Part shown: positions 4,045 through 56,070 of the stretch, piece after piece
Numbering within the stretch: the stretch's first letter is position 1
Layout of the letters: each line of letters opens with the position of its first letter
Assembly: GCA_903906305.1 (NCBI GenBank)
Contig: CAIVJR010000005.1
Coordinates: 83,667 to 147,666 of the forward strand
Reading direction: 5' to 3'
Source of the DNA: an uncultured bacterium
GTDB taxonomy: Bacteria > Patescibacteriota > Dojkabacteria > SC72
Length of the DNA stretch: 64,000 nucleotides
The notes under the pieces: generated by a model
The model's input: the letters and a program-made list of their open reading frames with translations, nothing else
Databases searched by the model: none
What the model was told of the DNA's origin: nothing
Program-made: the position numbers and the translations under genes

Positions 4045-4713
4045 CTAGAAACATTTAATCTGATCTCCCTCTATGCCTAAAACCTGCTTAAAATCTTCTT
4101 CACCTGCAATTATTCCCGCTCCTTGTTTAATCAGTGAGTGACACCCACGAGATGTAGATTTAAATATATCGCCTGGAATTACGTACACATCTCTATTAAA
4201 TTCTAAGGCCAGATTGGCTGTAACCAATGATCCACTCTGTATATCCGCTTCTATGACTACTGTCGTCTCTGATATCCCAGCAAGTATACGATTGCGCATA
4301 GGAAACATACCTTTGTGCATCTCAACCTTTCCGCCATATTCTGCCATTACCAATCCTTTTTCTGAGATATCCTCGTAGAGTTTAGCATTGCTAAGAGGAT
4401 ATATATTCCCTATACCCCCCGCTATGACTGCAATTGTGGGAATGCCCAACTCCAAACATCTTCTATGCCCCATTGTATCTATCCCTTCCGCCAATCCACT
4501 TACAATACATATATCCAAATCAATGAGGTATGGTTGAAGCAACATATCCAATACCTCCTTGCCATATCTTGTAGCTTTCCTAGTACCAACAATGGTTAAA
4601 CACCGCTTCTTCAGTAAATCCACATTCCCCTTACAATGCAATTGTTTAGGAGGCTTGTGTATCTCCTTTAAAAACCTTGGATATCTAGAATCACCCATAC
4701 ATATATATGACAT
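4045..4713 (-). CDS. dprA: DNA processing protein DprA (short, Rossmann core only)
   Basis: GLAEGIDTMGHRRCLE, PMRNRILAGIS and SGSLVTANLALEFNRDVYVIPG. The N-terminal SAM-like and C-terminal wHTH extensions are absent. Confidence 0.85.
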   Translation of the reverse strand: MSYICMGDSRYPRFLKEIHKPPKQLHCKGNVDLLKKRCLTIVGTRKATRYGKEVLDMLLQPYLIDLDICIVSGLAEGIDTMGHRRCLELGIPTIAVIAGGIGNIYPLSNAKLYEDISEKGLVMAEYGGKVEMHKGMFPMRNRILAGISETTVVIEADIQSGSLVTANLALEFNRDVYVIPGDIFKSTSRGCHSLIKQGAGIIAGEEDFKQVLGIEGDQIKCF

Positions 4714-8098: not shown

Positions 8099-9154
8099 TT
8101 AAACTAACTCATTCCAAGATCTTTGGACTCTTTCAAGTAGTTCGATGTGGTCTAACATCAATGCGGTTCCTCTTGCTACTGCTGAAAGCGGATCATCTAC
8201 TATTTTTACTGGAAGATTTAACTCCTCTGCCCAGAATGTATCCAATCCTTTTATCAATGCTCCACCACCTGTTAAATGTAATCCTGAGGTTAACAAATCT
8301 TTTAGTAATTCTGGTGGAGTATCTTCAATTGCATCTTTAACTGCTTCGGTAATCTGATATATGGAGGTCATGATGGCTTCTCTTACCTCTACACTACTAA
8401 GCTCGACTGTCTTTGGAAGTCCCGTTAGAAGATCCCTACCCTGTACAGACATCTTAGTTTCCTTTTTTAGTGGCATTGCTGAACCTATGGCAATTTTTAC
8501 GTCTTCAGCGCTTCGCTCACCTATGAGGACATTGTATTTTTCTCTTACATAGTTAACGATATCTTGATCCATTTCATCTCCCGCAATTCTCAAGGTATTA
8601 TCTACAACAATATCTCCAAGTGAGAATACTGCAATGTCAGAAGTACCTCCTCCAACATCTACAATCATACTTCCAGAGGCATCTTCTACCGGTAACCCTG
8701 CTCCAATGGCTGCTGCCATTGATTCTTCAACTATGAATACTTCTCTCGCTCCAGCTGTTTTTACCGCATCGATAACGGCTTGTCTTTCTACTTCAGTTAC
8801 CGAAGATGGGACGCCAACGATTACTCTTGGTCTTGGAAGTTTAAATGAATTTCCAAAGTAGGAATGTGCTCGGTGTATGAAGTGATGGATCATGGCTTGG
8901 GTAGTATCAAAGTCTGAGATAACTCCATCTTTGAGTGGTCTCACTGCTGCAATGTTTGCAGGGGTTCTACCAATCATTTGTCTAGCTTCTTTACCCACAG
9001 CGAGTACTGTTTTAGTTCTTTTGTCTATTGCCACAACTGAAGGTTCGGAGACTACGATGCCGTGGTTACGCATATATACCAAGGTATTTGCAGTACCCAA
9101 GTCAATTCCCAAATCATATGTTAGTAGTTCCCAGATTGAATCAAAAATTTTCAT
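8099..9154 (-). CDS. mreB: rod shape-determining actin homolog MreB (copy 1)
   Basis: DLGIDLGTANTLVY, DVGGGTSDIAV and LTGGGALIKGLD. Carries an N-terminal amphipathic extension MKIFDSIWELL. Confidence 0.95.
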   Translation of the reverse strand: MKIFDSIWELLTYDLGIDLGTANTLVYMRNHGIVVSEPSVVAIDKRTKTVLAVGKEARQMIGRTPANIAAVRPLKDGVISDFDTTQAMIHHFIHRAHSYFGNSFKLPRPRVIVGVPSSVTEVERQAVIDAVKTAGAREVFIVEESMAAAIGAGLPVEDASGSMIVDVGGGTSDIAVFSLGDIVVDNTLRIAGDEMDQDIVNYVREKYNVLIGERSAEDVKIAIGSAMPLKKETKMSVQGRDLLTGLPKTVELSSVEVREAIMTSIYQITEAVKDAIEDTPPELLKDLLTSGLHLTGGGALIKGLDTFWAEELNLPVKIVDDPLSAVARGTALMLDHIELLERVQRSWNELV

Positions 9155-9196
9155 AGACTGATAGTATACAACTAGATATCCTTGATTCTAACATGT

Positions 9197-9220
9197 AAAA
9201 AAAAAGAACACGAGTGTTCT
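9197..9220 (-). terminator. rho-independent terminator after rpmB
   Basis: Perfect hairpin AGAACAC-GA-GTGTTCT (9205-9220), followed on the minus strand by a 9-nt U run (A run 9197-9205 on plus). Confidence 0.7.
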
Positions 9221-9254
9221 TTTATATATTTTCACCTAATTTGAATTGAGGGAA

Positions 9255-9479
9255 TTATGCTTCTTTTTCTTCTACTCCCTTTTGTAATCTCTTGTAGCAT
9301 TTCATACATATAGTGACGTTTTTAACAACTCCGTCAACTTCTAAGTCTATACTTCTAAGATTTGGTTTAAACTGTCTAACAGTGTGTGGTGCCTTATATC
9401 TCCAACCCACTGAGTGCTTGTGTTGGATACTTCGACCTGCTATCGTAGATTTTGTACAAATAAAACATTCTTTTGACAT
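9255..9479 (-). CDS. rpmB: 50S ribosomal protein L28 (zinc-ribbon form)
   Basis: MSKECFICTKSTIAGRSIQHKHSVGWRYKAPHTVRQFKPNLR... with CxxC...CxxC. ATG 9477-9479 is preferred over the TTG at 9518. Confidence 0.85.
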   Translation of the reverse strand: MSKECFICTKSTIAGRSIQHKHSVGWRYKAPHTVRQFKPNLRSIDLEVDGVVKNVTICMKCYKRLQKGVEEKEA

Positions 9480-9549
9480 AACGGAGGTATTATAAACTAA
9501 AATCTGTTTTATTGTCAAAGATTTTGTGACATATATTATATAATAGATT

Positions 9550-10176
9550 ATGGAAGGTTTAAACGCAGAGACAATTTATTGGATTATACTTGCAGTTCCA
9601 ACTATACTTATTGCTTCTACAGTACACGAATATGCACATGGTTGGGCAGCTTACAAGCTTGGAGATCCTACTGCAAAAGCTGCTGGTAGACTTACATTAA
9701 ATCCACTTAAACATATCGACCCTATTGGTGCGTTATGTATGATTTTGTTTAGATTTGGGTGGAGTAAGCCGGTTCCAATTAATGAGTATAATTTTGAAAG
9801 ACGAGAAGTGGATACTGCACTCACTGCATTAGCTGGACCTGTATCTAATATATTGCTTGCACTATTAACCGCACTTGTTAATTTAATATTTAAGCCTGAT
9901 CCTAGTTCTATATTTGCAATCATATTAATGGTTTTTGCATCTATTAATATTTCATTGGCTGTATTCAATCTCCTCCCTATCCCACCTTTAGATGGACATA
10001 AGATAGTGAGAGCGTTGCTTCCAAAGAAGCTTAGGTATTACTGGGAGAAGCTAGAAAAGTTCTCTATCATTATAATTTTGATATTTATTTTGCCTATCTC
10101 TCCACTATCGGCCTGGACTTCTACCTTTTTAAGCGGCACCATAACGAAACTATTATCACTACTAGGTTTCTTATAG
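9550..10176 (+). CDS. site-2 protease family (peptidase M50) membrane metalloprotease
   Basis: HEYAHGWAAYKLGDPTA (HExxH), RLTLNPLKHIDPIG, NLLPIPPLDG, and several TM helices. Confidence 0.85.
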   Translation: MEGLNAETIYWIILAVPTILIASTVHEYAHGWAAYKLGDPTAKAAGRLTLNPLKHIDPIGALCMILFRFGWSKPVPINEYNFERREVDTALTALAGPVSNILLALLTALVNLIFKPDPSSIFAIILMVFASINISLAVFNLLPIPPLDGHKIVRALLPKKLRYYWEKLEKFSIIIILIFILPISPLSAWTSTFLSGTITKLLSLLGFL

Positions 10177-15614: not shown

Positions 15615-16301
15615 ATGAAAAGAGGAAAAAAATATATTAAGACAACAAAAGGATTAGACAGAGAACAGTCATATACTGTTGCAGAAGGTATTAAGAAAGT
15701 TAAGACCCTCTCCTACTCTAACTTTGTAGGTACATTAGAATTACATGTTGATGTTAAATTACCTAAGGACAGAGATCCTAAGTCAATCAAGGGAGCAATC
15801 TCTCTTCCTAATGCTAGTGGTAACAAGGTTGTTAGAGTTGCAGTATTTGCTACTCCTGACAAAGATGAGGCAGCAAAAGCAGCTGGTGCAGATTTAGTAG
15901 GTATGGAGCAATTGATGAAGGATATTAAGGCTGGAAAGATTGAATTTGATGTAGCTATTGCTACTCCTGCAGTTATGCCTAAGCTTGCAGTACTTGGTAA
16001 AGAGTTAGGCCCTAAAGGATTAATGCCAAGTCCTAAGAATGGTACAGTTACTGATGATATTGCAAAGGCTGTTTCTGAATACAAAAAAGGTAAACAGACA
16101 TTTGCATGTGATGACTCTGGAGTTATACATTTAAATGTAGGTAAATTAGATATGGATGATGCTAAATTGGTAGAAAATGTACACGCTGGCGTTACCTCTA
16201 TTGAAGAAGTATTAGGTAAACCTGTAGATCAGATTCTACAGAAGATGCATCTTGCTCCTACAATGGGTGCAAGTGTTAAGATATCCTACTCTAAAGCATA
16301 G
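15615..16301 (+). CDS. rplA: 50S ribosomal protein L1
   Basis: KRGKKY..., FVGTLELHVDVKL..., and synteny. Confidence 0.97.
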   Translation: MKRGKKYIKTTKGLDREQSYTVAEGIKKVKTLSYSNFVGTLELHVDVKLPKDRDPKSIKGAISLPNASGNKVVRVAVFATPDKDEAAKAAGADLVGMEQLMKDIKAGKIEFDVAIATPAVMPKLAVLGKELGPKGLMPSPKNGTVTDDIAKAVSEYKKGKQTFACDDSGVIHLNVGKLDMDDAKLVENVHAGVTSIEEVLGKPVDQILQKMHLAPTMGASVKISYSKA

Positions 16302-16323
16302 TAGATATTACATATTGTAAATG

Positions 16324-16353
16324 AAAGACCTCCGTAAGGGGGTCTTTTTGTTT
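16324..16353 (+). terminator. rho-independent terminator after rplA
   Basis: Stem AAAGACCTCC / GGGGGTCTTT with a GTAA loop, followed by a T run. Confidence 0.75.
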
Positions 16354-16360
16354 ATATATC

Positions 16361-16389
16361 TTCACAAGATGTATTCTATAGGATATAAT
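16361..16389 (+). promoter_or_regulatory. promoter of ORFan 16451
   Basis: TTCACA, 17 nt, TATAAT. The spacer ends in TTCTATAGGA (16374-16383), shared with the next cassette and the uvrA upstream region. Confidence 0.5.
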
Positions 16390-16450
16390 GTGAATGTCTT
16401 GTTGCTCTTAAGAAGTCTGAAAATCATTATAAAAAGGCGGAGAATACATC

Positions 16451-16807
16451 ATGTGTTATAAAGTAGGACAAGAATTAGTACTAAAGCTAATCGTTGCAAG
16501 AGAGTATGGCAATTGTGCACACTACACACAAGTGGGTGGACACGGTCCAGATTTTCTGGTCCTCCCAGACAAAACGATGAAAGCCTGCAATTCAGATCCC
16601 AACCTCTTTTATCATGAAAGAGAAGAATATGTTTTAATCCATGGAATTAAAATTCCGTTGGAATCGGGATTTGAAAAAGTAACTGATAACTCTCGAAAGG
16701 TTGTTTCAAAAGGTGCAAAGTTCTCTATCACCTTGATTCTTTACAAACAAACAGCCCCAGAAAAAGAATCTGCTACTTTCAGAATTAAGTCGGTTAGTCT
16801 GGCTTAA
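16451..16807 (+). CDS. hypothetical protein (ORFan inserted in the rplA-rplJ gap)
   Basis: 118-aa ORF with a GGAG about 9 nt upstream of the ATG and its own promoter. No recognisable motif. Confidence 0.5.
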   Translation: MCYKVGQELVLKLIVAREYGNCAHYTQVGGHGPDFLVLPDKTMKACNSDPNLFYHEREEYVLIHGIKIPLESGFEKVTDNSRKVVSKGAKFSITLILYKQTAPEKESATFRIKSVSLA

Positions 16808-16858
16808 CGTTACTCATTATTGAATTAGACTTTCTTAGGAACAAAATAGACAGAGGGT

Positions 16859-16934
16859 GCGCTAATAGTCGGATTACCTGAAGGTAACTCGAGAACCATT
16901 CAGGTTCACTATTATTAACAATATCTATTAGCGC
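16859..16934 (+). other. long-range inverted repeat / structured RNA element downstream of ORFan 1
   Basis: GCGCTAATAG (16859-16868) pairs with CTATTAGCGC (16925-16934). An inner stem is ACCTGAA (16876-16882) / TTCAGGT (16899-16905). An alternative partner, ACTATT at 16909-16914, exists. No U run. Confidence 0.4.
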
Positions 16935-16968
16935 GCTCTCAGCACCATCCTATTTATCACAATATATC

Positions 16969-16997
16969 TTTACAATTCCATTTCTATAGGATAGAAT
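16969..16997 (+). promoter_or_regulatory. promoter of ORFan 17066
   Basis: TTTACA, 17 nt, TAGAAT. The spacer again ends in TTCTATAGGA (16982-16991), and an ATATATCTT box precedes the -35 as in the first cassette. Confidence 0.5.
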
Positions 16998-17065
16998 ATC
17001 TAGGCAACAAGTATACCGTTGCACCTTTCAAACCAAAAGAATATCTGTAGTTAGGGAGAAACTTG

Positions 17066-17563
17066 ATGGACACAACAATTCTTGACGTTGAAAAATCCGT
17101 AGAACTAGAAACACAGCAAGAAATAGATTACTCTGGAAGTGACGGAGATCCGTTAATTCCATGGGAATGTCTATGTGAAGAACATCAAAGAAACAAAAAA
17201 TCCCACAGGTGGCACAAATCCTCCATGACCATAATCTCCGTAAGTGAGATTGATAAAAAGCATGTGAGAGTACATACTCCCAAGGGAGTATATATTTGCC
17301 GAATCACAAAATTCGACCAATATAAGGTTATAAGGGTTGTACGAACCAAAAAATCCTTTAAACCAAAAGATCCTCCCATTGAACTAGAAGATGAATTCCT
17401 CCCTGTCGTTATCGCCGAATGTGAGTTCTTGGAAGACAATTGGAAGGAGGTCCTTGCAGAGCAGAATCGGGAACAAAATCCCCAAGGAGAACAGCAAACA
17501 CTTAGAGTTATCTCTCCTGAAGCATTCAAAGCTGCAATGGACAAACGACAACCCAAAGCTTAA
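17066..17563 (+). CDS. hypothetical protein (second ORFan in the rplA-rplJ gap)
   Basis: The track ORF starts at TTG 17063. ATG 17066 is preceded by AGGGAG. Contains a Cys/His cluster WECLCEEHQRNKKSHRWH and has no recognisable family. Confidence 0.5.
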   Translation: MDTTILDVEKSVELETQQEIDYSGSDGDPLIPWECLCEEHQRNKKSHRWHKSSMTIISVSEIDKKHVRVHTPKGVYICRITKFDQYKVIRVVRTKKSFKPKDPPIELEDEFLPVVIAECEFLEDNWKEVLAEQNREQNPQGEQQTLRVISPEAFKAAMDKRQPKA

Positions 17564-17615
17564 GCCAAGGGTATTGTCTTCGTTTCGCAACCGTTATACT
17601 TGTTGAAAAAAGGAA

Positions 17616-17700
17616 GGTGGACCTAGTAATAGAATGTGATCTATAAAAGAAGCTGAGCTCTGCGCAGAGTTTCTTTTAAAAATCATTTCTTAGGTCCACC
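17616..17700 (+). other. long-range inverted repeat downstream of ORFan 2
   Basis: GGTGGACCTA (17616-17625) pairs with TAGGTCCACC (17691-17700). It encloses the palindrome CTCTGC/GCAGAG (17658-17669), followed by TTTCTTTT. Confidence 0.4.
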
Positions 17701-17716
17701 TGCACGTCCCCATCTA

Positions 17717-17745
17717 TTGACCCTACCCCATTCTACTGATATAAT
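17717..17745 (+). promoter_or_regulatory. sigma70-type promoter for rplJL
   Basis: TTGACC, 17 nt, TATAAT, 85 nt upstream of rplJ. Confidence 0.55.
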
Positions 17746-17769
17746 CCAAGCCATATATTAACCTAAGAA

Positions 17770-17793
17770 ACAAGGTATAGAATAAATCCTTGT
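17770..17793 (+). promoter_or_regulatory. hairpin in the rplJ 5' leader (possible L10-leader-type autoregulatory element)
   Basis: ACAAGG-N12-CCTTGT between the promoter and rplJ. Many bacteria carry an L10(L12)4-binding leader at this position. Confidence 0.3.
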
Positions 17794-17830
17794 GAGGTAA
17801 ATAGTGAATTCAATTAAATAAATAATAAAT

Positions 17831-18352
17831 ATGTCAAAAACACGTTCCCAAAAAACGGAGTTATTAGATGGATATAAAGAAATCCTTAAGAACAAGGTTG
17901 GATATCTTTTAATCAACTCTGAAAAGACAGATACTAAGACTGTAACAGGCCTTAAGATCCAGTTAAAAGGTGTAGGTGCTAACTACGAAGTAGTAAAGAA
18001 CAGTATCTTTAAAATAGCTCTACAAGAAACAGAGCAACCATTAAAAACACAAGAATTTGATGGACCTACAGCAATCATATTTTTTGATGAAGATCCTACA
18101 GCTCCTGCAAAATTAGTAAAAGAAGCACAAAAAGTTACCAAACTTTTTGAAGCAAGAGGTGGTGTATATGAAGGTGAATTTTTAACAGCAGAAAAGGTAA
18201 TGCAATTAGCAGATATTCCTTCAAGAGAAGTATTACTTGGTAAGTTACTGGGCACAATGGTCGCCCCACTCTCTGGCTTTATGAATGCCGTTACTGGCAA
18301 TGTCAGAGGTTTAACAATGGTTCTAAAGGGCATTTCTGAAAAGGATGCTTAA
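17831..18352 (+). CDS. rplJ: 50S ribosomal protein L10
   Basis: Length, position before rplL, and typical N-terminus (KTRSQKTELLDGYKEILKN). Confidence 0.93.
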   Translation: MSKTRSQKTELLDGYKEILKNKVGYLLINSEKTDTKTVTGLKIQLKGVGANYEVVKNSIFKIALQETEQPLKTQEFDGPTAIIFFDEDPTAPAKLVKEAQKVTKLFEARGGVYEGEFLTAEKVMQLADIPSREVLLGKLLGTMVAPLSGFMNAVTGNVRGLTMVLKGISEKDA

Positions 18353-18797: not shown

Positions 18798-18827
18798 TAG
18801 TTCTACAGAATTAGATCGTATGAAAAG

Positions 18828-18854
18828 GAGCCATAGCAATATGGCTCTTTTTTT
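18828..18854 (+). terminator. rho-independent terminator after rplL
   Basis: GAGCCATA-GCAA-TATGGCTC followed by T7. Confidence 0.8.
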
Positions 18855-18870
18855 ATTCATAGACTACCAA

Positions 18871-19074
18871 GGTCAGACCTAGGACAGTCCTCAATAATAT
18901 GTGATGCGCTTTTTTGTTGGATTGACGGACTTATCAGCCACTTTTTGTAGTTTGGTGCCATGCTAATTGGGCCTGTTTTTCTAATTATCTACACAGTACC
19001 CAATGTGCATTTGTCCTTACCTTCCATAGGTTTGTTGGGTTAATCGGTTGGGGAGGACTGACCTAGGTCAGTCC
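18871..19074. repeat. about 204-bp non-coding element bounded by 22-bp imperfect inverted repeats (MITE-like or structured RNA)
   Basis: Left arm GGTCAGACCTAGGACAGTCCTC (18871-18892). Right arm GAGGACTGACCTAGGTCAGTCC (19053-19074). The arms are 19/22 complementary, and 19055-19074 is itself a perfect 20-bp palindrome. The interior has no ORF and looks GC-richer than its flanks. Confidence 0.5.
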
Positions 19075-19104
19075 TTCGGGGTGTTAGATATTTATTAACT
19101 CCCA

Positions 19105-19134
19105 TCGACAAATACACCCCAAATTAAGTATAAT
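19105..19134 (+). promoter_or_regulatory. promoter of the 7TM/ATP-grasp operon
   Basis: TCGACA, 18 nt, TATAAT, 40 nt upstream of 19175. Confidence 0.45.
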
Positions 19135-19174
19135 CTAACCAGAATCTGCCTTAATTTAATACACATATATTTCA

Positions 19175-19849
19175 ATGACCTATACACCTTTTACTCAATG
19201 GATGATTACGACTGGAGTACCACAACAAGTATTGGAATTGCTACTAGCTGTAATGATTGTAGCAACAATTGTAAGCATAGCTAGATATATAATTGGATCT
19301 AAAACATATGGAATATATGCACCAATAATATTGGCAATCGCATACTCATATACAGGTTTAAGATATGGATTAGCAATAACCTTGATAGTGATTTTGACTA
19401 CCCTACTCTCATACACCATACTACGAAGAGTACGTATGCATTACATAGCTAGAATAGCAGTAAATTACTGTCTGTTAGCTATAATGTTAGTAGTCTTCTT
19501 CATAGTCATAGGACAATTTGGTTTTGGTTTAGACAATATGGCAAATATCTCTGGACTTGCAGCAATATCAATTGCAGCACTTTCAGACTTCTTCATAAAA
19601 CAATATGTAAAGAAATCATTTAAATCTTCTGTCTTGATCCTCTTTAGCACTGTTTTCATTGCCACACTCGGATGGTTTGTCATAACCCGAGATGTCATAA
19701 CAACATATTTCTTAAACAACCTTTGGATTGTTCCAATCTTAATCATATTGAATATCCTCATTGGGCAGTTTACTGGCCTTAGAATCAAAGATCTCTTTAG
19801 ATTTAAATCAGTTATTCAGAATAAGGATAAAGATAATGTTCAGAAATAG
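19175..19849 (+). CDS. 7-TM membrane protein of the type usually fused to an inactive transglutaminase (7TM_transglut-like)
   Basis: Polytopic. IGSKTYGIYAPIILAIAYSYTG resembles the family signature as I recall it. First gene of the ATP-grasp operon, the known partner context. Confidence 0.6.
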   Translation: MTYTPFTQWMITTGVPQQVLELLLAVMIVATIVSIARYIIGSKTYGIYAPIILAIAYSYTGLRYGLAITLIVILTTLLSYTILRRVRMHYIARIAVNYCLLAIMLVVFFIVIGQFGFGLDNMANISGLAAISIAALSDFFIKQYVKKSFKSSVLILFSTVFIATLGWFVITRDVITTYFLNNLWIVPILIILNILIGQFTGLRIKDLFRFKSVIQNKDKDNVQK

Positions 19850-21293
19850 GATAAAAGATGTATTAGGACTAAACAGACGTAATCAAGAATACGTTCGTCC
19901 ATACAACCACCCAAAATCTAAAGCGTTAGCAGATAATAAGATTGCTACAAAAAAGCTTCTTGCAAAGGAAGGTATCAACACATCTGAGGTATACAAACTC
20001 ATTAAAAATCGTAAACAACTAGCCTTCTTAGATTGGGAATCATTACCAAAAAGTTTTGTAATCAAACCTAATCAAGGTACTGGTGGAAATGGAATTCTAG
20101 TAATCTATGGTAGAAAGAGGGGCGAATTAGCATGGATAAGGCCAGGCGGAGAAGTATTAAGTAAAAAAGATCTCTCCTTACACATTGAGAATATCCTCGA
20201 AGGAAGATTTTCAATGGGTGAAAGAAGCGATATCGCAATAATTGAAGAAAGAGTTAGAACTGATTCATTCCTAAAACAATACTCATACAAAGGTGTACCC
20301 GATATTAGAATCATATGTTTCAATCTCGTCCCCATTATGGCAATGATGCGAATACCTACCAAACGATCCAACGGTACTGCAAATCTACATTCTGGAGCTA
20401 TATGTACCGGTATAGACATAGCAACAGGCATAACCACCTACTCTATGCATATGAATAGCAAATCATTGTTGAGCGATACATATGAGATGATAGATAATAC
20501 TCAAGATTTGAAGATTAACAAAAAGCTTTCAGGTGTTCAGATACCTGATTGGGACAAGATCTTGGATATTGCAGTAAGATGCCAAAGAGCAAGTAAGCTT
20601 GGCTATACAGGTGTCGATATAGCATTAGACGCAGACAAAGGCCCTATCGTTTTTGAATTAAATGCTAGACCTGGCCTTGGAATCCAAGTCGCAAATCAAG
20701 CGGGTTTAAGATGGAGATTAGAAAAAGTAAAAGGATTGGAAGTGAAGAGTATTAAACACGGTATAAGGGTAGCGAAGAATCTGTTTGGTGGAGAAGTAGA
20801 AGACAGTATTGAAGCTATTAGTGGAAGAAAGGTTGTTAACATCAACGAGAAAATAACCCTGTATTACAAATCATACAAAGAAGGTAGCAAAAATGAGAAT
20901 AAAGACAGAGAGATTACTACCGCATTTGTAGATACAGGAGCTATAACCTCCCGTATCTCTCGAAGCTATGTATCCAGAATGGGATATTTCGAAACCATGA
21001 GACAGTTTGACTATCTAAAATGCCCTAAGAACTTCCTCGCTTTTAAGGATGCACAAGAATACATAGACGAATATAGTAAAAACATGACAGAGGATGCATA
21101 CATCATACGTTTAGCTAAAATCTTTGAGGATGGGCAAATAGTTGTCCGACCTGTTATCATTGTTAAAGTAAGAATATCAGGCGAAATACGTGATCTTGAA
21201 ATGATCGTAACTGAAGATAGTACACACTCTGTCACATTAGGAAGAAACGACCTCAGAGACTATTTAATTGATACAAGTAAAACATTTAAATAA
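19836..21293 (+). CDS. alpha-L-glutamate-ligase-related ATP-grasp enzyme fused to a C-terminal retropepsin-like aspartic protease
   Basis: ATG 19836 (MFRNRIKDVLGLNRRNQEYVRPYNHP...) overlaps the upstream gene by 14 nt. ATP-grasp core (VIKPNQGTGGNGI, GYTGVDIALD, FELNARPG). C-terminal FVDTGAITS, VVRPVIIV and VTLGRNDLRDYLID form a DTGA protease module. Confidence 0.7.
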   Translation: MFRNRIKDVLGLNRRNQEYVRPYNHPKSKALADNKIATKKLLAKEGINTSEVYKLIKNRKQLAFLDWESLPKSFVIKPNQGTGGNGILVIYGRKRGELAWIRPGGEVLSKKDLSLHIENILEGRFSMGERSDIAIIEERVRTDSFLKQYSYKGVPDIRIICFNLVPIMAMMRIPTKRSNGTANLHSGAICTGIDIATGITTYSMHMNSKSLLSDTYEMIDNTQDLKINKKLSGVQIPDWDKILDIAVRCQRASKLGYTGVDIALDADKGPIVFELNARPGLGIQVANQAGLRWRLEKVKGLEVKSIKHGIRVAKNLFGGEVEDSIEAISGRKVVNINEKITLYYKSYKEGSKNENKDREITTAFVDTGAITSRISRSYVSRMGYFETMRQFDYLKCPKNFLAFKDAQEYIDEYSKNMTEDAYIIRLAKIFEDGQIVVRPVIIVKVRISGEIRDLEMIVTEDSTHSVTLGRNDLRDYLIDTSKTFK

Positions 21294-22282
21294 TGAAAAC
21301 ATACGAAGAATATCTAAAAGAAGCAGGAAATGTCCATTTAGCATACTATGTCGAAGCTGCTGACATCTTAGGAATCAAATATTCCATCGTTGTTAGAAGC
21401 CTAATTGCAAAGTTCGAAGTTGAAGACAAGCATTGGTTCATTATAAATACTGTTACACCCCTAACCTCCTCCCCAAGTGCTACCATTTCAAAACGAAAGA
21501 ACCTTACCAATATGGTATTAAGCTCATATGGTGTAGATGTCCCAAAGCAAGAGGGATTAACAAGCCCCATTGATGCTATAAAATTCTTTAATAAGTATAA
21601 AAACATAGTCATAAAGCCTGCTCAACAGCTTGGTGGAAAAGGTATTACCCTACTTCCAGAGACAGAAGACCAGGTTATATCTGCTTTCAACGAAGCATTC
21701 GAGAAAGATAGATCAAAAGGAGAAATTAAGGTATTGGGAGAAGAATTCATCAAAGGAGAAAACTATCGATTCTTAGTAGTTGGCGAAAACGTTGTTGGAA
21801 TAGTATGGAGAAAGGCCCCAATAGTTATCGGCAATAGCAAAAATACTATAAGAGAACTAATTGATACATCAAACAAAGAGCGTAGCCTCCTCGTTCTCAA
21901 ATCTATTCCCATAGATTCAGAAGTACAAACTAGATTAAAAAATGCTGACCTCACATTAGATTCAATTCCAGACGAAGGCCAAGTTATAACCCTTAGATAC
22001 AATTGTAATCTGACTACTGGTGGTACTACAGAAGAGTGTGCTTCCATTGTAGATCCATACTACAAGGAGCTCGCTGTAAAGGCCGTTAAGGCTCTTGATT
22101 TAGAATTCGGGGGTGTAGATATCATTGCAGAGGATATAACTAAACCAGGGAAGTGTGGAATTAATGAAATCAACTACAATCCTGGATTAAGATTACATTA
22201 CAAAGCTGACAAGGGTGAGAAGGTTAAGGTCGCTGTCCCTATTATGGAATATATTAGAGATAAGTATACAAATAAATTATAA
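21293..22282 (+). CDS. ATP-grasp ligase, cyanophycin-synthetase G-domain-like
   Basis: IKPAQQLGGKGIT, GENYRFLVVGENVVG, RYNCNLTTGGTTEEC, GGVDIIAEDITKP and EINYNPGL. Start shares 1 nt with the upstream stop (TAATG). Confidence 0.65.
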   Translation: MKTYEEYLKEAGNVHLAYYVEAADILGIKYSIVVRSLIAKFEVEDKHWFIINTVTPLTSSPSATISKRKNLTNMVLSSYGVDVPKQEGLTSPIDAIKFFNKYKNIVIKPAQQLGGKGITLLPETEDQVISAFNEAFEKDRSKGEIKVLGEEFIKGENYRFLVVGENVVGIVWRKAPIVIGNSKNTIRELIDTSNKERSLLVLKSIPIDSEVQTRLKNADLTLDSIPDEGQVITLRYNCNLTTGGTTEECASIVDPYYKELAVKAVKALDLEFGGVDIIAEDITKPGKCGINEINYNPGLRLHYKADKGEKVKVAVPIMEYIRDKYTNKL

Positions 22283-22292
22283 GATAAACATT

Positions 22293-23984
22293 ATGAGTAA
22301 CGTGCAAGTATTACAAGGCCTAAATCTAGATTCAGAGATATCTGTCATAAAAATTAATGTACATAAGACCGATACTATCGTTAGATATCTTGAACTTCTT
22401 AAAAATTTTCACCCAATATTCATGCGTGAATACAAATTTGAAAATGACATCTTAAGCATTCACACAATGATAACCTCGTTGTGGAGAGAACTTGGAGAAA
22501 TAATAATCAAACTTTCAGAAGGAAAGATCGATTACGAAGAAGCAAGAAAACACACTCTTGAAGAAGTCCTTAAACAACGAGTAGCCTCTATGTCTACTAT
22601 TCCTCTAATCTTTTTTGCAAACAAAATGAAATATGAGGTAACACCAACGCTATTAGAAGACGAAAGGATAAAATACAATACAGGGCCCAATAGAATATAT
22701 ACTTTAGGCGTAGGTCGTAATTCCCAAATTATATATTCTATATCCTCTAGTAAAGATTCTAAAGAAGCAAAAGAAATTCAAAGAGATAAATATCTTACAA
22801 ACCTTATGATTCAGCGATTAGGTCTCCCTATTCCAAAATGGCAAGTCCTAGACAATATATCACAGATTGAAGAAGTCTGGAGTAGCTATGAAAAACCTGT
22901 CGTCATAAAACCAACAGGTCTTACAGGTGGGCATGGTGTTGTAGTTGGTATAGAAACGCTAGAGAAAGCAAAGGAGGCATTTAAATTTGCAAAAGAAGCA
23001 ACTCAGGATAGAATCAGAGAAGAATGGCAGCAAAAGATCATGATACAAGAACAAATCTCAGGTGAAGATTACAGGCTTCTCGTTATAAATGGCCATCTAG
23101 AAATCGCAACCAAGCGTATTCCAGCCTTCATCATAGGAGATGGCAAGCATACAATTGAAGAATTGATCGATATAACCAATACAGATCCTCGAAGAGATGT
23201 TACTAACCCTACTCATACATTAAAACCTATTAAGATTGATGATCCTCTAAAGTCATATATCAAAGATCAGAAATTAACCCTTACCTCTATTCCTAAGAAA
23301 GAGCAGAAAGTTAATGTGAGAAAGGTTGCAAGCATGAGCCAAGGCGGCATAACCGAAGATTTTACGGATAAGGTAAGCCCAGAAATTAAAGCAATTGTAG
23401 AGAGCATCGCATCATCGATTCATGCATTTACTCTAGGGGTCGATGTCATGTGTAAAGATCTTTCCAAACCATTAACAAAAGACAACGGTGCAATACTAGA
23501 AGTGAACACAATGCCTGAAGCATATCTTAATACCTATCCTGTCATTGGTGAATCCCGAGAATACGTATTCGACAAATATATAAAAGCTCTTTTAGAAGGC
23601 AATAACACAAAGCAGATAGTAATTGTAGGTAATAGCACAGAAGATGTACCTACTCTACTAAGAAAGAAATCGATCTTTGGATCATACCTCAAACAAGATG
23701 CCGTTATCGGAGAATACAAAGATGGAGAGATTAGAATTAATGGGTTGGATATAAATAAGGGCCTAGAGAAATGGAAAGCAATAGAAGGCCTTAAAGTAAA
23801 TGCATCTTTAGATGCAATGATCATACATCATAGAAATGTAGAAGAGGTTAGAGAAACAGGCTTAGGATTTAATAAAATTGACCTTTTAATGGTAGAATCT
23901 AAATATTTTGAAGATAGAGAATTTAAAAAAGCTATCCGAAGATACCAAATGAAAGGATTAATATCTAAAATAAAGAAATTCTAA
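22293..23984 (+). CDS. cyanophycin-synthetase-like protein (N + ATP-grasp domains; M domain reduced to a degenerate stub)
   Basis: ATG 22293 (MSNVQVLQGLNLDS...). CphA-like order: N-domain, then STIPLIFFANKM...LGVGRNSQIIYSISSSKDSKEAKEIQRDKYLTNLMIQRLGLPIPK, then VIKPTGLTGGHGV, GEDYRLLVINGHL, RKVASMSQGGITEDFTD and LEVNTMPE. The C-terminal ~130 aa begin QIVIVGNSTEDVPT where a Mur-ligase P-loop would sit. Confidence 0.65.
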   Translation: MSNVQVLQGLNLDSEISVIKINVHKTDTIVRYLELLKNFHPIFMREYKFENDILSIHTMITSLWRELGEIIIKLSEGKIDYEEARKHTLEEVLKQRVASMSTIPLIFFANKMKYEVTPTLLEDERIKYNTGPNRIYTLGVGRNSQIIYSISSSKDSKEAKEIQRDKYLTNLMIQRLGLPIPKWQVLDNISQIEEVWSSYEKPVVIKPTGLTGGHGVVVGIETLEKAKEAFKFAKEATQDRIREEWQQKIMIQEQISGEDYRLLVINGHLEIATKRIPAFIIGDGKHTIEELIDITNTDPRRDVTNPTHTLKPIKIDDPLKSYIKDQKLTLTSIPKKEQKVNVRKVASMSQGGITEDFTDKVSPEIKAIVESIASSIHAFTLGVDVMCKDLSKPLTKDNGAILEVNTMPEAYLNTYPVIGESREYVFDKYIKALLEGNNTKQIVIVGNSTEDVPTLLRKKSIFGSYLKQDAVIGEYKDGEIRINGLDINKGLEKWKAIEGLKVNASLDAMIIHHRNVEEVRETGLGFNKIDLLMVESKYFEDREFKKAIRRYQMKGLISKIKKF

Positions 23985-23985
23985 T

Positions 23986-24933
23986 ATGAAATACCTCATC
24001 ATAGACAAAAGACAGCGTGTAGAAGTAGCTACAATGGGTGAAATACCTACAGGATCAGCAAGATTAGTAGAAGAATTAGATAAAAAAAATATTCCTCATG
24101 ATTTTGCATATAACGATGAAATAGAGTTCTTGTTTCATAATGGTTCCACGGTTATAAAAGTGGCAGGACATGACGTAACAGAGTACAGCAACATCATTCT
24201 TAGAGGTCATTCCTTAGGTGACGAACGTGAGTATCAATACAAGAGATTCATCATAGACTACGTTGATCAATATAATAGAGACAACCCAGAAAAAAAAGTG
24301 ATCATTCAGAATTCTAAGGCAATCAAGAATCTTCCATATTACAATAAGATAGCCTTTGCAATGCTATGTTCAAAAAATAACCTCCCCTACTTTAATACAT
24401 ATTTCCATACCAATGGGGAATATTTAAAAGATAGAGATATGTTAAAGGAATATCCATTGATTATCAAAGAATACTCGGGAATGAATAGAACTGAAATGAT
24501 TGAGGGTAAAGAGAAGATCAAGAAGAATGTGTTTAAATTAGAGAAAGATGAGGATTACAAGCAAGAAAATCTTGATGGACAAGATCTTTCCCATTTCTTC
24601 ATACAGGAATTTTCTGATGCTGGTGAAGATTACAGAATATTTGTTAAGTTAGGGAAAGTAATAGCCGGATGGAAAAGAAAGGCTGTTAATGGCTTTATGA
24701 CTGTAAGCAAGGGTGAGTACGAGATGTACAATACTCCTAACGAGGAGATAACTGAGATTGCTGAGAAGATGGCATCCGTATTAGAAGCTGACTTTATGGC
24801 CGTAGACTTTATGTATATGAATGGGAAGGCATGTATACAAGAGATAAGCTTCCATCCTGGATATAAGGCATATGAGACTAAGATTGAGGGAGAGCCAGTG
24901 AATATAGCTGAAGCTATAGTTACTGCTTTTTAA
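23986..24933 (+). CDS. RimK-like ATP-grasp ligase
   Basis: LIIKEYSGMNR, GEDYRIFVKLGKVIAGWKRKA, ADFMAVDFMYMNGKACIQEISFHPG. Starts 1 nt after the upstream stop. Confidence 0.6.
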   Translation: MKYLIIDKRQRVEVATMGEIPTGSARLVEELDKKNIPHDFAYNDEIEFLFHNGSTVIKVAGHDVTEYSNIILRGHSLGDEREYQYKRFIIDYVDQYNRDNPEKKVIIQNSKAIKNLPYYNKIAFAMLCSKNNLPYFNTYFHTNGEYLKDRDMLKEYPLIIKEYSGMNRTEMIEGKEKIKKNVFKLEKDEDYKQENLDGQDLSHFFIQEFSDAGEDYRIFVKLGKVIAGWKRKAVNGFMTVSKGEYEMYNTPNEEITEIAEKMASVLEADFMAVDFMYMNGKACIQEISFHPGYKAYETKIEGEPVNIAEAIVTAF

Positions 24934-38307: not shown

Positions 38308-39684
38308 TTAAACAATCTTAGGCCCAAATCCCCAATGATGGGCTGCTTTGGCCAATGCGGTATCTGGATGTTCAATAATCCACTGCTCCATATTTCCTCT
38401 GCCTAACGCTACATCCTTTGCCTGTATTACGGCTTCTACACCTGCTTCAATGCCCCATGGATGTCCTAAGACTCCACCACCTACTTGGATTACAATATCT
38501 TCACCTAATTGATACAGCGCTTCAGGAATAGTACCTGGATGTAATCCACCTGAAGCTACATGCCATACGGGTTTCATTCCATACCAGTTCTGTCCTAATG
38601 TCATACTCGTCTCTGGAGTAATATCCAACTGCAAAGTATCTCTAATGAGTTTTGGCTCACCATAATTTTCCATTTTCCCTACAGGAGCTCCACCATGAAG
38701 CGAGTCTACACCTAACATTCTCATGATTTTAGCAGTTACTACCATGGACATAGAAAAGTCTTTGATTTCGCCTCTGTCATACACCCCAGGACCAGACTCT
38801 CTGTCAAAAAGGCTGTGCATCGCCCTATGTGCATGTATTGCCAACCCTGGATTGTGCATCCTCATTGTCTGGATTGCACTAAATCCAGTAGTAACAATAT
38901 CCATCATCATCCATCTCCCTCCCTGTGCCTTTATCTTATCTGCCCTCTGTATCATCACATCTAGATTGGAATGCGTCACATTACATAGGTAGAATTTCTT
39001 TTTCCCCGTCTTCCTTTCTACCTCTCTTTGCACCTTATGTATCAGCTCACATCGATCATCAAAGGTATTGAATGGTAGACTAGTTAGATTTTCATCGTCC
39101 TTAATACCATGATATTCTGCATTTGCAGCAGTAAAAAGTATCTCTGCTAATTTTGCCTGTTCTTTGGCTGTACGTCCTACTTTTGGTTTTGGAACAGTAC
39201 AGAGCAATGGTCCTTCTTCGACTTGTAATAGCTCTCGCATACCCCAAATACCAAACTGTGGACCTTGGAATGCTTGAATAATGCACTTTGGGAAACGAAT
39301 ATCTAAACATCGAAATGCCTTGAGCATCTTCATTCCATCGATATTTCCTACTACTCCTGCCAATATTCCAGACATATTGTCATATTCAAATAGCTCTTTT
39401 TTGTAAGCAATCTTAAACGTCTTGGTATTGTGATCTAAATCAAATGCTATGGCCTTAAGCTTCTCTGCCATCCTTACGCCTGAATCTCGACCAGAATATA
39501 TCTCTGTCCATGTACCAGTAGAGCTTTCTGCAGCACATGCTGCTACTACATCTTCAAATTTCTCCATACCAATACCATCTGCAAGCTCAATATCGAGATA
39601 TGTAATGATGTAATTCTCATCAGGATTCTTAGGTTTCCACCCCTTTGGGGCGATGTAACCGTTGTGTGTAGCTCCAATAACCAT
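38308..39684 (-). CDS. rbcL: ribulose-1,5-bisphosphate carboxylase large subunit, form II/III or III-like
   Basis: GTWTE, KPKVGRTAKE, GIKDDENL (carbamyl-Lys region), HAHRAMH, GGAPVGKMEN, ASGGLHPG and GGGVLGHPWG. The catalytic motifs appear intact. Confidence 0.85.
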   Translation of the reverse strand: MVIGATHNGYIAPKGWKPKNPDENYIITYLDIELADGIGMEKFEDVVAACAAESSTGTWTEIYSGRDSGVRMAEKLKAIAFDLDHNTKTFKIAYKKELFEYDNMSGILAGVVGNIDGMKMLKAFRCLDIRFPKCIIQAFQGPQFGIWGMRELLQVEEGPLLCTVPKPKVGRTAKEQAKLAEILFTAANAEYHGIKDDENLTSLPFNTFDDRCELIHKVQREVERKTGKKKFYLCNVTHSNLDVMIQRADKIKAQGGRWMMMDIVTTGFSAIQTMRMHNPGLAIHAHRAMHSLFDRESGPGVYDRGEIKDFSMSMVVTAKIMRMLGVDSLHGGAPVGKMENYGEPKLIRDTLQLDITPETSMTLGQNWYGMKPVWHVASGGLHPGTIPEALYQLGEDIVIQVGGGVLGHPWGIEAGVEAVIQAKDVALGRGNMEQWIIEHPDTALAKAAHHWGFGPKIV

Positions 39685-45127: not shown

Positions 45128-46799
45128 CTTCTACAGGATAGAAATATATAGAAAGGAATATTAAAAGTACGCACATCACTATGGGAATAATAATTCCAAC
45201 TTTTTCTAATTCCCAATATCCCCACCCAACCTTACCTATCAAATTTACTACAAGTTCGAAATATTTGAGTTGAATGTTGGAGGCTTCGAATAATAGAACT
45301 GATAGTAAGGGGAAAAGTTTTAAAGATATTAATCCAAATATTCCTAAGAACATGGTGCTCTCTACGACTGGTAATATGAGGCAATTAGCTACCACTGCCC
45401 ATATTGATACCGTTCCGAATGTATATATCGTTATGGGCAATGTAGTAAGCGTACAACTCAATGTAGTAAGCAATGTATCTTCAACAAAACCATTACTTTT
45501 CTTGAATACCTTCTTCCATATATTGCTTAATGCAGGTTGGAGATATACCAAGCCTAATGTTGCCACTACAGAGAGTCGAAAGCCTACATTAAAGACAATC
45601 TTTGGATCAATGAGAACAAATATGAACGCGGCTAACGGCAAGGATATATGTATCGTATTCTTCTTCCCCAAGATCATAGCTACAAGAGCTATACTGGTCA
45701 TTATGCAGGCTCTCACTATGGATGGAGACAGTCCTGAAAGAATACAGAAGCCCCAAATCAAAAACAGGAGTAAGAACAACCGTATCTTTAATGGAAGAAA
45801 CTTTAGAAGCTTACTTCCTGCCAATATTAATATCGTTATATTGTACCCTGAAGCTGCTACGATATGGCTTACCCCAGCCATCCGCACGTTGCTATCGAAT
45901 TTTTCACTGAATAGCCTATCCTGTCCAAAGATTATTCCCATCATTAAAGATGATTGTGGCTCCTTAAGGTTTTGAGAAATAATATTGTTAAGTTTTTGTT
46001 TAAAATCTACCAATATATTTTGCAAAACAAAGCCTTCTCTTTTTCCGCTACAATCAATTTCAGGAAACTCCATCAAAAGGTAAATGTTATTGTTTTTTAG
46101 ATAGTCTTTGTAGTTAAAATCTTCGAAACTTTCAGGTATTTTAAACAAACCCTTTATGTTACACACTTCCCTTACCCTTGGATTTTGATATTTTTTAATC
46201 TTTATCAAGAACTTTTGGCTTTCCTTTTTAATCACACTCTCTCCTATCGATATATCTGAAGCGGGTTTTACTTCGATTGTATTGTAATTTGCCTTCTCTG
46301 TAATTTCAGATGTTACAATTGCGTCAAAAGTAGCCCATTGGTCTGTGAAACTTGCCGACACAGCATCATTTCTCTTTTCTTGCTTAATCATAGGAGCCAA
46401 TCTGATTGCAGAGAATACTGTTATCAGGACTAACAGATTAATTAGGTTCAAAAAGTGCAACAATTTTCTACATGTACTTTTTCTCTTTTTTGACTGATTT
46501 GAATTGGCAGATATGTTTCTCAGATGTTTTGATATCAAAAACAGAATAATTACTACCCCAAAAGTTAGTAAAATATGTCTCATGGAGATATGGATGTTTA
46601 TGTTTCTCAGAAGAGTGATGACCAAAATATTCAAAACGATATATGAGATGGAAATGAAAATAATTTTGAAATCGATCACATAGTGGATGAATCCACCTAC
46701 CCTTTTTCCCACATGGACGATTTTAGTCTTAAAAGAGTGAAACATACTATATACAGATATTATCTTTAAATTTGTCATATGTTGCTTGACCAATTCCAC
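45090..46799 (-). CDS. comEC: ComEC/Rec2 DNA-uptake channel, N-terminal OB + competence (TM) domains
   Basis: Polytopic core with GVSHIVAASGYNITIL and PSIVRACIM. The likely true start is an internal Met (46778 or 46745), which would avoid overlap with comEA. Confidence 0.8.
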   Translation of the reverse strand: MELVKQHMTNLKIISVYSMFHSFKTKIVHVGKRVGGFIHYVIDFKIIFISISYIVLNILVITLLRNINIHISMRHILLTFGVVIILFLISKHLRNISANSNQSKKRKSTCRKLLHFLNLINLLVLITVFSAIRLAPMIKQEKRNDAVSASFTDQWATFDAIVTSEITEKANYNTIEVKPASDISIGESVIKKESQKFLIKIKKYQNPRVREVCNIKGLFKIPESFEDFNYKDYLKNNNIYLLMEFPEIDCSGKREGFVLQNILVDFKQKLNNIISQNLKEPQSSLMMGIIFGQDRLFSEKFDSNVRMAGVSHIVAASGYNITILILAGSKLLKFLPLKIRLFLLLFLIWGFCILSGLSPSIVRACIMTSIALVAMILGKKNTIHISLPLAAFIFVLIDPKIVFNVGFRLSVVATLGLVYLQPALSNIWKKVFKKSNGFVEDTLLTTLSCTLTTLPITIYTFGTVSIWAVVANCLILPVVESTMFLGIFGLISLKLFPLLSVLLFEASNIQLKYFELVVNLIGKVGWGYWELEKVGIIIPIVMCVLLIFLSIYFYPVEDESHNFYLKISS

Positions 46800-56038: not shown

Positions 56039-56070
56039 ATACCAGAGGGTATTTGTAGGTTATTTTGCTA

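Follow-up and report, generated by a model that had tools for sequence, protein, structure and literature searches.

A two-slot locus of divergent small genes and co-varying hairpins between rplA and rplJ in Dojkabacteria

Why should the rplKAJL cluster, one of the most conserved in bacteria, contain in one lineage a long spacer with small genes that occur almost nowhere else? The question is raised by a Dojkabacteria contig (CAIVJR010000005.1), of which a 64-kb stretch, here called the window, was analyzed. Its plus strand reads rpmG, tRNA-Trp, secE, nusG, rplK, rplA, a spacer of 1.53 kb, rplJ, and rplL. The spacer holds, in order, the terminator of rplA; two units, each made of a predicted promoter, a Shine-Dalgarno (SD) site, and a small open reading frame (ORF) and each followed by a stable palindromic element of 85 to 95 nucleotides (nt), termed E1 and E2; and the promoter and leader of rplJ. 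The initial annotation took this arrangement for two inserted cassettes that might belong to a mobile family. The answer that we favor, with roughly even confidence, is a locus-specific, lineage-wide accessory-gene slot within the cluster, a hyperplastic mini-region of hairpin-plus-promoter modules in which alleles would be exchanged in the manner of the PeSL cassettes of T4-like phages. A literature search found no description of an rplA-rplJ slot.

Two promoter-gene units and their relatives

The promoters of the two units are versions of one box. P1 (16354..16389, plus strand) combines a -35 hexamer TTCACA (16361-16366), a 17-nt spacer ending in TTCTATAGGA, and a -10 hexamer TATAAT (16384-16389); P2 (16962..16997, plus strand) combines TTTACA (16969-16974), a spacer likewise 17 nt long, and TAGAAT (16992-16997). 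Together they form a 36-nt direct repeat of 78% identity with CTATAGGATA in common, and 64 kb contain exactly two matches to the pattern ATATATCTTYACA-N7-TTCTATAGGATAKAAT, as opposed to none in 100 shuffles. With 11 of 12 consensus positions in P1, 10 of 12 in P2, and 11 of 12 plus TG in the promoter of rplJ, all three predicted promoters lie near the sigma-70 consensus. A T7-like reading of CTATAGG was dropped, since the -35/17/-10 geometry fits sigma-70 and there is no phage context. The 5' untranslated region (5'UTR) of the slot-1 transcript has a conserved motif, TGTCTTGTTGCTCTTAAG (16395..16412, plus strand), kept across relatives with unrelated slot-1 alleles. The P1 spacer (16363-16377) is also complementary, over 15 nt at 93%, to the SD and start region of the first gene (16441-16455), a match that may be due to chance and would matter only for read-through transcripts from rplA.

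The slot-1 gene, ORF1 (16451..16807, plus strand), encodes 118 amino acids (aa) and has the SD sequence GGAG (16439-16442) 8 nt before its ATG at 16451. The slot-2 gene, ORF2 (17066..17563, plus strand), encodes 165 aa and has AGGGAG (17053-17058) 7 nt before its ATG at 17066. The boxes, spacers, SD sites, and stems of the initial annotation are all present as stated there, and it had sized ORF1 correctly but had given ORF2 166 aa; the TTG at 17063 that this implies is the less likely start, because homologues begin MDT. Within allele classes, the ratio of nonsynonymous to synonymous substitution rates (dN/dS) is 0.08 to 0.20 (ORF1, 0.08 to 0.13; ORF2, 0.09 to 0.14), compared with 0.05 to 0.12 for rplA and rplJ, and values this low mark both ORFs as real, translated genes held under purifying selection. 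A reading of the ORFs as fast evolving was rejected, their dN/dS being as low as that of rplA and rplJ and their synonymous divergence (dS) being discordant with that of the flanks. The spacer would thus consist of two tandem autonomous units, each with a predicted sigma-70-type promoter, an SD site, and a small constrained gene, in agreement with the earlier description of two self-contained modules sharing one promoter architecture.

Both proteins belong to small families confined to Dojkabacteria. ORF1 has one homologue at 82% identity (P0001) and others at 29 to 41% in the same slot; a single-sequence search returned only two database relatives, and a profile of 18 slot-1 proteins recovered 13 clusters among 5.8 billion proteins, all of about 110 to 120 aa. 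ORF2, a type-A allele of its family, has two close homologues (91% and 80%), to which an exhaustive profile search over 1.84 billion representatives, returning 2 clusters only, added a full-length relative at 28%. In all-against-all comparisons the slot-1 proteins are joined by a chain of weak similarities, whereas those of slot 2 have two motifs in common, K/R-I/V-x-T-K-E/K-G in the center and L-x-I-I-P at the C terminus. An N-terminal CxxC...CxxC motif is added in many alleles of slot 2, and the type-A ORF2 shares the central and C-terminal motifs with the Cys-rich type-B alleles. The Cys/His cluster reported earlier in ORF2 (CLCEEH..HRWH) holds for C35, C37, H47, and H50, which are kept in the two close homologues, and fails for H40. 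The description of the ORFs as two unrelated ORFans is right in that the families are unrelated to each other (profile-profile probability, 0.3%) and wrong in that neither is an isolated one-off. Sequence searches against Pfam, PHROGs, PADLOC, and PDB gave nothing significant for ORF1, ORF2, or 34 family members.

When species-representative genomes were searched with the L1 protein, the window fell within Candidatus Dojkabacteria (WS6; Patescibacteria, also called the candidate phyla radiation [CPR]), of which 47 loci were obtained, with rplA-rplJ spacers of 122 to 2782 bp. Eight genome or Logan loci with L1 at least 83% identical (83 to 97%) were taken as close relatives, and 11 metagenome contigs were added by exact match to the P2 box and leader. 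All of these 8 + 11 loci have the same layout: terminator, P1 box, 5'UTR motif, slot-1 ORF, AAAGACAGAGAG, E1, P2 box, ATATCTAGGCAAC, slot-2 ORF, E2, and the rplJ promoter and leader. In relatives, then, the two ORF families occupy this very position between matching flanking elements, and this shared order marks the two-slot layout as ancestral in the clade. The word "inserted" does not suit it, the more so as a hairpin-plus-promoter module also occurs in distant Dojkabacteria lineages.

Nor did a mobile family emerge. The P2 box is 93 to 100% identical between relatives whose rplA genes differ by 20%, and the promoter box was found in 868 kb of Dojkabacteria DNA at this locus only, where every complete locus has two copies, invariably on the strand of the genes; an exact-match metagenome scan for the P2 box and leader likewise matched this locus only. 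Viral contigs gave no match to the promoter box or to either protein, and a phage origin was rejected on that account. Confinement of box and hairpins to a single locus, together with their absence from viral contigs, means that these are not a dispersed or phage-borne cassette family.

Other DNA is also present in the gap. Three loci (L013 5685-6450, L092, and L094) have about 600 bp extra between the rplA terminator and P1, with two overlapping minus-strand ORFs of 93 to 103 aa (MADYTNRLQVG...) and 96 to 111 aa (ending ...GGHSGSKKVYK); the pair is laid out like a toxin-antitoxin pair and has no Pfam match at an E value of ≤0.001. In distant lineages the gap holds still other genes: one of 326 to 329 aa in L024, L039, L044, L045, and L056, whose N-terminal glycine motif GGSGHIGN has, by eye only, the look of an NAD-dependent epimerase/dehydratase; one of 434 aa in L052; one of 211 aa in L014; and four ORFs in L028. 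Lineages of this kind thus seem to use the gap as a general hotspot of insertion.

Hairpins and the promoters that follow them

What, then, are the palindromic elements? E1 (16849..16944, plus strand; minimum free energy, -39.5 kcal/mol; z, -7.1) opens with a conserved GACAGAG lead-in and has a 16-bp outer stem (16853-16868/16925-16940) whose core (16859-16868/16925-16934) is a perfect 10 bp, the 16 being reached when G-U pairs are counted. It encloses a hairpin (16869-16892) and a second one (16893-16907) that a terminator scan flagged as terminator-like and that has a T-rich tail; this hairpin recurs with its T-rich tract in most variants. E2 (17615..17701, plus strand; -39.0 kcal/mol; z, -6.3) is an extended hairpin with a perfect 11-bp basal stem (17615-17625/17691-17701), a 5-nt bulge on the 5' side, a helix of conserved sequence (AGAAUGUGAU/AUCAUUUCU), and at the apex a further helix that ends in a perfect, spacer-less palindrome, CTCTGCGCAGAG (17658-17669). 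Of the two 10-bp stems originally reported, the first stands as such and the second gains a base pair. Their terminal sequences are GACAGAG.../...CTCTCAGC for E1 and AGGTGGACC.../...GGTCCACCT for E2. For neither element did any of 200 shuffles fold as well, and of the 16 inverted repeats in the window that are perfect over 10 bp or more (shuffles, 5 to 12), four of which fall within this 1.5 kb, E1 and E2 alone are GC rich.

In the stems, structure persists as sequence changes, which is the covariation that the initial annotation had called for. All 16 E1 variants adopt the same fold, with an outer stem of 14 to 20 bp running from a conserved GAGAG to CUCUC. In a plain MAFFT alignment 81.9% of the cells are paired, against 72.3 ± 1.3% when shuffled and 38 to 50% when slid, and double-sided changes number 30, against 11.2 ± 2.5 in shuffles; none of 500 shuffles reached either value. 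Exchanging arms between variants lowers stability, from -25.1 kcal/mol for cognate to -17.6 for non-cognate arms. For E2, whose MAFFT alignment was too poor for a column-wise test, covariation was judged by this arm-swap test: cognate halves fold at -39.9 kcal/mol and non-cognate halves at -24.4 ± 7.1, and all 12 variants (about 7 sequence types) share the extended-hairpin architecture. Two candidate identities were discarded. ARAGORN and Rfam were negative for a tRNA or tRNA-like nature of the 76-nt E1 core, and mimicry of the GTPase-associated center of 23S rRNA (UAGAAGC, GUAAUAG, and AUCAUUU) was rejected, by inspection only, the words being nonconserved and in different structural contexts.

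In size (80 to 110 nt), imperfect palindromy, and intergenic position, E1 and E2 recall ERIC and Correia-type elements, which are imperfect intergenic palindromes of comparable size, and one might suppose them to be selfish repeats of the MITE, REP, or ERIC kind that landed here by chance. No copy of an E-type element was found elsewhere, however, in a search that covered the 64-kb window and, for 47 Dojkabacteria genomes, flanks of about 10 kb each, some 800 kb in all, and their placement relative to promoters is fixed in 17 distant loci, so that we regard a selfish origin as exceedingly improbable.

Those distant loci also bear on which gene the hairpins serve. The distance from the end of E1 to the -35 of P2 is about 28 nt, and 15 nt separate the end of E2 from the -35 of the rplJ promoter (TTGACC-17-TATAAT with an extended -10, TGnTATAAT; 17717..17745, plus strand). 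Of 46 Dojkabacteria spacers, 17 have an element of the form ARGAGAGR...YCTCTCTTGAC at a distance of 111 to 118 nt from the start of rplJ. The 3' arm of this element runs into the -35 (TTGAC) of an rplJ promoter of the same form, TTGACC-17-TATAAT, and its interior shares a GUAGAUUG...CAUCAU motif with E1 and E2. One locus, L049, has terminator, hairpin, and promoter without an ORF; L021 has only a 22-codon remnant; and the shortest spacers (L048, L050, and L053) have only terminator and promoter. The stems had been described as the tails of the ORFs upstream of them. The position of the 3' arm in the -35 at 17 loci and the ORF-less L049 instead identify hairpin plus promoter as the recurring unit, and the hairpin thus seems to belong to the promoter that follows it. 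This genus has two such units, E1 with P2 and E2 with the rplJ promoter, preceded by the rplA terminator and P1; in each, hairpin and next promoter would make up one composite module. A third small family, of 56 to 94 aa with a Cys-rich N terminus and the C terminus ...EGLAPI (L015 5685-7060, L022, L016-L018, L035, L038, and L041), directly precedes the E hairpin in lineages farther removed, and the remnant in L021 derives from it.

The same tie to rplJ could be read differently, with the hairpins as cis-regulatory RNA of the stalk operon, whether an RNase III site or a binding site for L10, L12, or another protein on read-through RNA, and the ORFs as passengers in a long leader. An E-type hairpin accompanies the rplJ promoter in 17 of 46 gaps, L049 has one without any ORF, and a bulged inner helix of conserved sequence ([AT]AGA[AT]TG ... 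CAUCAU/UUC), common to E2 and its distant relatives, resembles a protein site. Long, nearly perfect helices are, moreover, typical RNase III substrates. The 3' arm of E2 (17686-17695) is perfectly complementary over 10 nt to the conserved rplJ leader (17761-17770), a match that extends to 26 nt at 73% (17670-17695 with 17761-17786), and the two could form an alternative pairing on read-through transcripts. But because the hairpins precede or run into the -35 of an rplJ promoter close to consensus, transcripts that start there do not contain them; neither the L10_leader nor an rRNA model of Rfam matches at an E value of ≤10; and the likeness to the 23S center consists, by inspection, of the short, nonconserved words mentioned above. 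We think a cis-regulatory function for the stalk operon unlikely.

The rplJ promoter itself is 95 to 100% conserved in the identity profile of the relatives compared. With the 85-nt leader that follows (17746..17830, plus strand; hairpin ACAAGG..CCTTGT; nearly invariant in the clade), the segment 17717-17830 is 95 to 100% identical between relatives that agree at only about 80% in the coding sequences of rplA and rplJ, which suggests strong constraint. The leader is probably the autoregulatory site of L10. In the window only tRNAs scored above the Rfam gathering threshold, and in 16280-17850 there was no relevant match at an E value of ≤10, the L10_leader (RF00557) and rRNA models included.

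A second conserved pairing surrounds the slot-2 gene. A segment of its 5'UTR (17005..17018, plus strand) is complementary to one in its 3'UTR (17592..17605, plus strand), the two forming inverted repeat I9 (14 nt at 93%); the former also supplies a local hairpin, GCAAC...GTTGC, with its 5' arm and its loop. Nucleotides from about +8 to +22 thus face a stretch 9 to 42 nt past the stop codon, and an uninterrupted duplex of 11 to 15 bp can be drawn in all 14 complete variants, in at least five versions (CAACAAGUAUA, CAAACUCACCA, CAGGUCUACCGA, CAAACUUACCA, and CAAGCUUACCG), some of which differ by single compensatory pairs. Scored by contiguous run, RNAduplex with long loops having given noisy z-scores, cognate segments pair over a mean of 11.7 bp and non-cognate segments over 8.0. 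The SD site is left uncovered, and by inspection similar complementary segments surround type-B genes of the distant lineages L026, L032, and L046. In the slot-2 mRNA the 5'-terminal region would be paired to the 3'UTR over these 11 to 15 bp, which would probably stabilize the message.

Apparent independent assortment of alleles

The evidence that alleles are exchanged comes from comparing the slots with their flanks. On backbones whose L1 proteins are 92 to 100% identical, slot-1 alleles may be 30 to 40% identical or undetectably related, and slot 2 behaves likewise; alleles at 30% identity occur on backbones with 94% identical L1. Slot-1 allele 1A is combined with 2A in the window and with 2X in L008; 2A is found again with 1C' in L091 and 1B in L004; and the remaining combinations are 1B'+2B (L009), 1C+2B'' (L089), 1C+2A' (L010), and 1C+2C (L011), a distribution in which slot-1 and slot-2 alleles, as far as these sequences tell, assort independently. 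Synonymous divergence departs from that of the flank in both directions: for ORF1 of the window and L008, dS is 1.19, higher than the 0.30 of rplA, and for ORF2 of the window and L004 it is 0.64, lower than the 1.02 of rplA. A sliding identity profile resolves four independently varying blocks, namely, the slot-1 ORF, E1, the slot-2 ORF including the UTR duplex around it, and E2, joined by linkers of 40 to 130 nt that are 93 to 100% identical, above the neighboring ribosomal genes (about 80%, window versus L004). E1 types reassort relative to both ORFs. From these patterns we infer that the alleles have been exchanged and have not merely diverged.

Exchange of this kind could proceed through homology. 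The P1 box with the 5'UTR motif, AAAGACAGAGAG, the P2 box, and the rplJ promoter and leader, together with the conserved rplA and rplJ, would serve as homology arms by which divergent slot-1, E1, slot-2, and E2 alleles could be swapped independently between strains. The window also contains genes of the natural-transformation type, all on the minus strand: a RadC-like gene (565-1254), DprA (DNA_processg_A; 4045-4713), and a ComEA-like gene (HHH_3 and SLBB; 46747-47421). The presence of the DprA and ComEA-like genes is compatible with DNA uptake and homologous replacement. The hairpins, for their part, might stop or process transcripts arriving from upstream and protect their 3' ends, a role in which the short GC hairpin and U-rich tract of E1 and of most E2 variants would serve; strong accessory promoters would thereby be kept from disturbing the autoregulated rplJL unit. 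The proteins may act in a strain-specific role under balancing selection.

One could object that the assortment is an artifact of assembly, contigs having switched strains at the linkers, and that a fast-diverging gene pair has been inherited vertically. Several variants do occur within the same metagenomes, four on contigs of Ga0209373 and four on contigs of Ga0209800, and linkers of 40 to 130 nt are comparable to assembler k-mers. The same combinations recur, however, in independent assemblies and sources, five of them in all (L001=L002=L003, L009=L096, L010=L095, the window and L007, and L090=L093). Faster drift or single-point chimeras do not easily explain an allele dS that exceeds the flanks in some pairs and falls below them in others. 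Alleles only 30% identical on backbones with 94% identical L1 speak against an artifact as well. We hold an artifactual mosaic to be very improbable.

Several observations weigh against exchange among hairpin-plus-promoter modules as we have drawn it. Strain-chimeric assembly at the linkers could yield some of the mosaic pattern. The outer stems of E1 and E2 have no U tract, and the same genome has canonical terminators after both rplA and rplL, which makes simple intrinsic termination by the whole element doubtful; in most E2 variants the apex hairpin is followed by a U-rich strand. A C-rich tract after E1 that might load Rho is only among the top 5% of windows, and this weakly supported candidate was set aside. 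Folding energy has no strand bias (9 of 16 and 8 of 14 variants favor the plus strand), and few of the pairs are G-U. The apex of E2 is palindromic through its center in every variant (CTCTGCGCAGAG, ATACTCAGCTGAGTAT, AAAAACTACGCGTAGTTTTT, and TCTACGCGCGTAGA), with symmetric substitutions between relatives. Strand symmetry and a palindromic apex fit a role at the DNA level as well as at the RNA level, and an attempt to assign the strand from G-U pairs met with no asymmetry and hence does not separate the two. Finally, AlphaFold2, run with shallow alignments on both proteins as had been proposed, returned predicted local distance difference test (pLDDT) values of 35.5 and 36.4, giving no usable fold and no pointer to function.

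The symmetry invites the reading that the E elements are folded-hairpin DNA sites, cruciform or single stranded, that drive site-specific module exchange much as integron attC sites do. Arms that co-vary despite sequence drift, the want of strand asymmetry with few G-U pairs, and module boundaries at the hairpin feet all agree with such sites, as does the spacer-less palindrome at the E2 apex in about four independent sequence classes, given that a self-complementary 4-nt center is expected in about 1/16 per class. Yet the 20 mid-sized window ORFs scanned in Pfam include no tyrosine recombinase, the element ends have no RYYYAAC/GTTRRRY core sites, every unit brings its own promoter as integron cassettes do not, the elements are confined to one locus, and linkers of 40 to 130 nt suffice for ordinary homologous recombination. 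Site-specific exchange at folded DNA is, in our judgment, decidedly unlikely. A bolder proposal, in which E1 and E2 as structure-specific palindromes, and not homology as such, direct the swapping of small proteins particular to each strain, balancing selection preserves old allelic lineages of these proteins, and the proteins are co-expressed with the genes for L11, L1, L10, and L12 because they act on or protect the ribosomal stalk, has in our estimate only a slim chance of being right. Were there such a dedicated exchange locus, its products might confer, for example, immunity to ribosome-targeting toxins or phage factors or serve strain recognition in episymbiont-like bacteria.

Under the accessory-slot reading that we prefer, purifying selection, apparently high expression, and divergent alleles in co-occurring strains would point to strain-level interactions in organisms not yet grown alone. 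The co-varying palindromes and the UTR duplex provide testable regulatory elements in a phylum whose expression signals are unstudied, and the locus is a convenient marker of Dojkabacteria strains in metagenomes.

On the plus strand, rplA (15615..16301), whose homologue in L001 is annotated as Pfam Ribosomal_L1, ends before a canonical intrinsic terminator of rplKA with an 11-bp stem and T-run (16323..16353; by scan, 16323-16348 plus the T-run) that is kept in all relatives, and rplJ, known from the ORF list and from relatives, occupies 17831..18352; the scans thus bore out the earlier statement that rplA has its own terminator and rplJ its own consensus promoter. After rplL come a terminator and a cluster of 7TM-transglutaminase and ATP-grasp genes (window 18800-24933), not rpoB, and between rplL and that cluster L001 has two additional ORFs of 121 and 286 aa (8285-9552), another variable spot. 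Farther away, two giant minus-strand ORFs of 2624 and 2250 aa (48164-56038 and 57138-63890), the latter with Laminin_G_3 and glycine-rich domains, flank a plus-strand Fic-domain gene (56022-57131); plus-strand windows with an excess of C over G are strongest in this 50- to 59-kb region. A RuBisCO large-subunit homologue lies at 38308-39684 on the minus strand.

Comparison with known systems

Identification of the elements with integron sites, MITEs, L10 leaders, or tRNA-like structures fails a defining test in each case. As in integrons, small genes stand in tandem, each followed by an imperfect palindrome conserved in structure and not in sequence, and gene content varies among close relatives. 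However, no integrase was found among the 20 scanned mid-sized ORFs, and in relatives the slot is flanked by genes of the ribosomal and housekeeping kinds. R' and R'' core sites are lacking, each unit has its own promoter where integron cassettes are generally promoterless, and the slots are fixed in position and number, the alleles of a slot forming one protein family.

Polymorphic loci swapped by homologous recombination between conserved flanks offer a second comparison; the agr specificity groups and the pneumococcal capsule locus between dexB and aliA are well-known cases. There, as here, divergent alleles are under purifying selection, have histories incongruent with those of their flanks, and coexist in populations. 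The Dojkabacteria slot differs in being much smaller (two genes of about 0.35 to 0.5 kb), in having ribosomal-protein flanks, and in possessing internal conserved regulatory linkers that permit reassortment below the level of the locus.

Base pairing between the 5' and 3' UTRs of a single mRNA is described for icaR of Staphylococcus aureus (PMC3868564) and hbs of Bacillus subtilis (PMC5737220). In those accounts, as in slot 2, a stretch of the 3'UTR is complementary to the 5'UTR of the same message, here over 11 to 15 bp and with compensatory changes. The icaR pairing reportedly involves the Shine-Dalgarno site. The duplex predicted here differs in lying within the first 20 nt or so of the 5'UTR and in co-occurring with a large downstream palindrome.

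The closest resemblance is to the PeSL cassettes of T4-like phages, which combine a sigma-70 promoter with a stem-loop upstream of or overlapping the -35, have terminator activity, and are associated with ORFans shuffled by recombination (Arbiol et al. 2010, PMC2839356); a later paper likewise treats ORFan shuffling with these cassettes (Comeau et al. 2014, PMC4122927). Both systems place a stable stem-loop at or near the -35 of a sigma-70-type promoter, both carry small ORFan genes in a hyperplastic region between conserved core genes, and in both, conserved motifs would serve as points of homology by which close relatives swap unrelated genes. The PeSL stem-loop terminates or attenuates upstream transcription; in the slot, a terminator-like core was flagged inside E1. 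The slot is nevertheless not a member of the PeSL family. It is chromosomal, lying within rplKAJL of a CPR bacterium and not in a phage; it comprises two or three modules at one locus as against about 50 dispersed phage copies; and its hairpins are far larger (80 to 110 nt, with several helices) and variable in sequence, conservation being limited to the promoter boxes and short linkers. Mini-circles and terminator activity belong to the PeSL side of the comparison. What the two have in common would make the rplA-rplJ slot a cellular counterpart, in the CPR, of the promoter and stem-loop shuffling of T4-like phages, maintained inside a gene cluster that bacteria otherwise keep among their most conserved.

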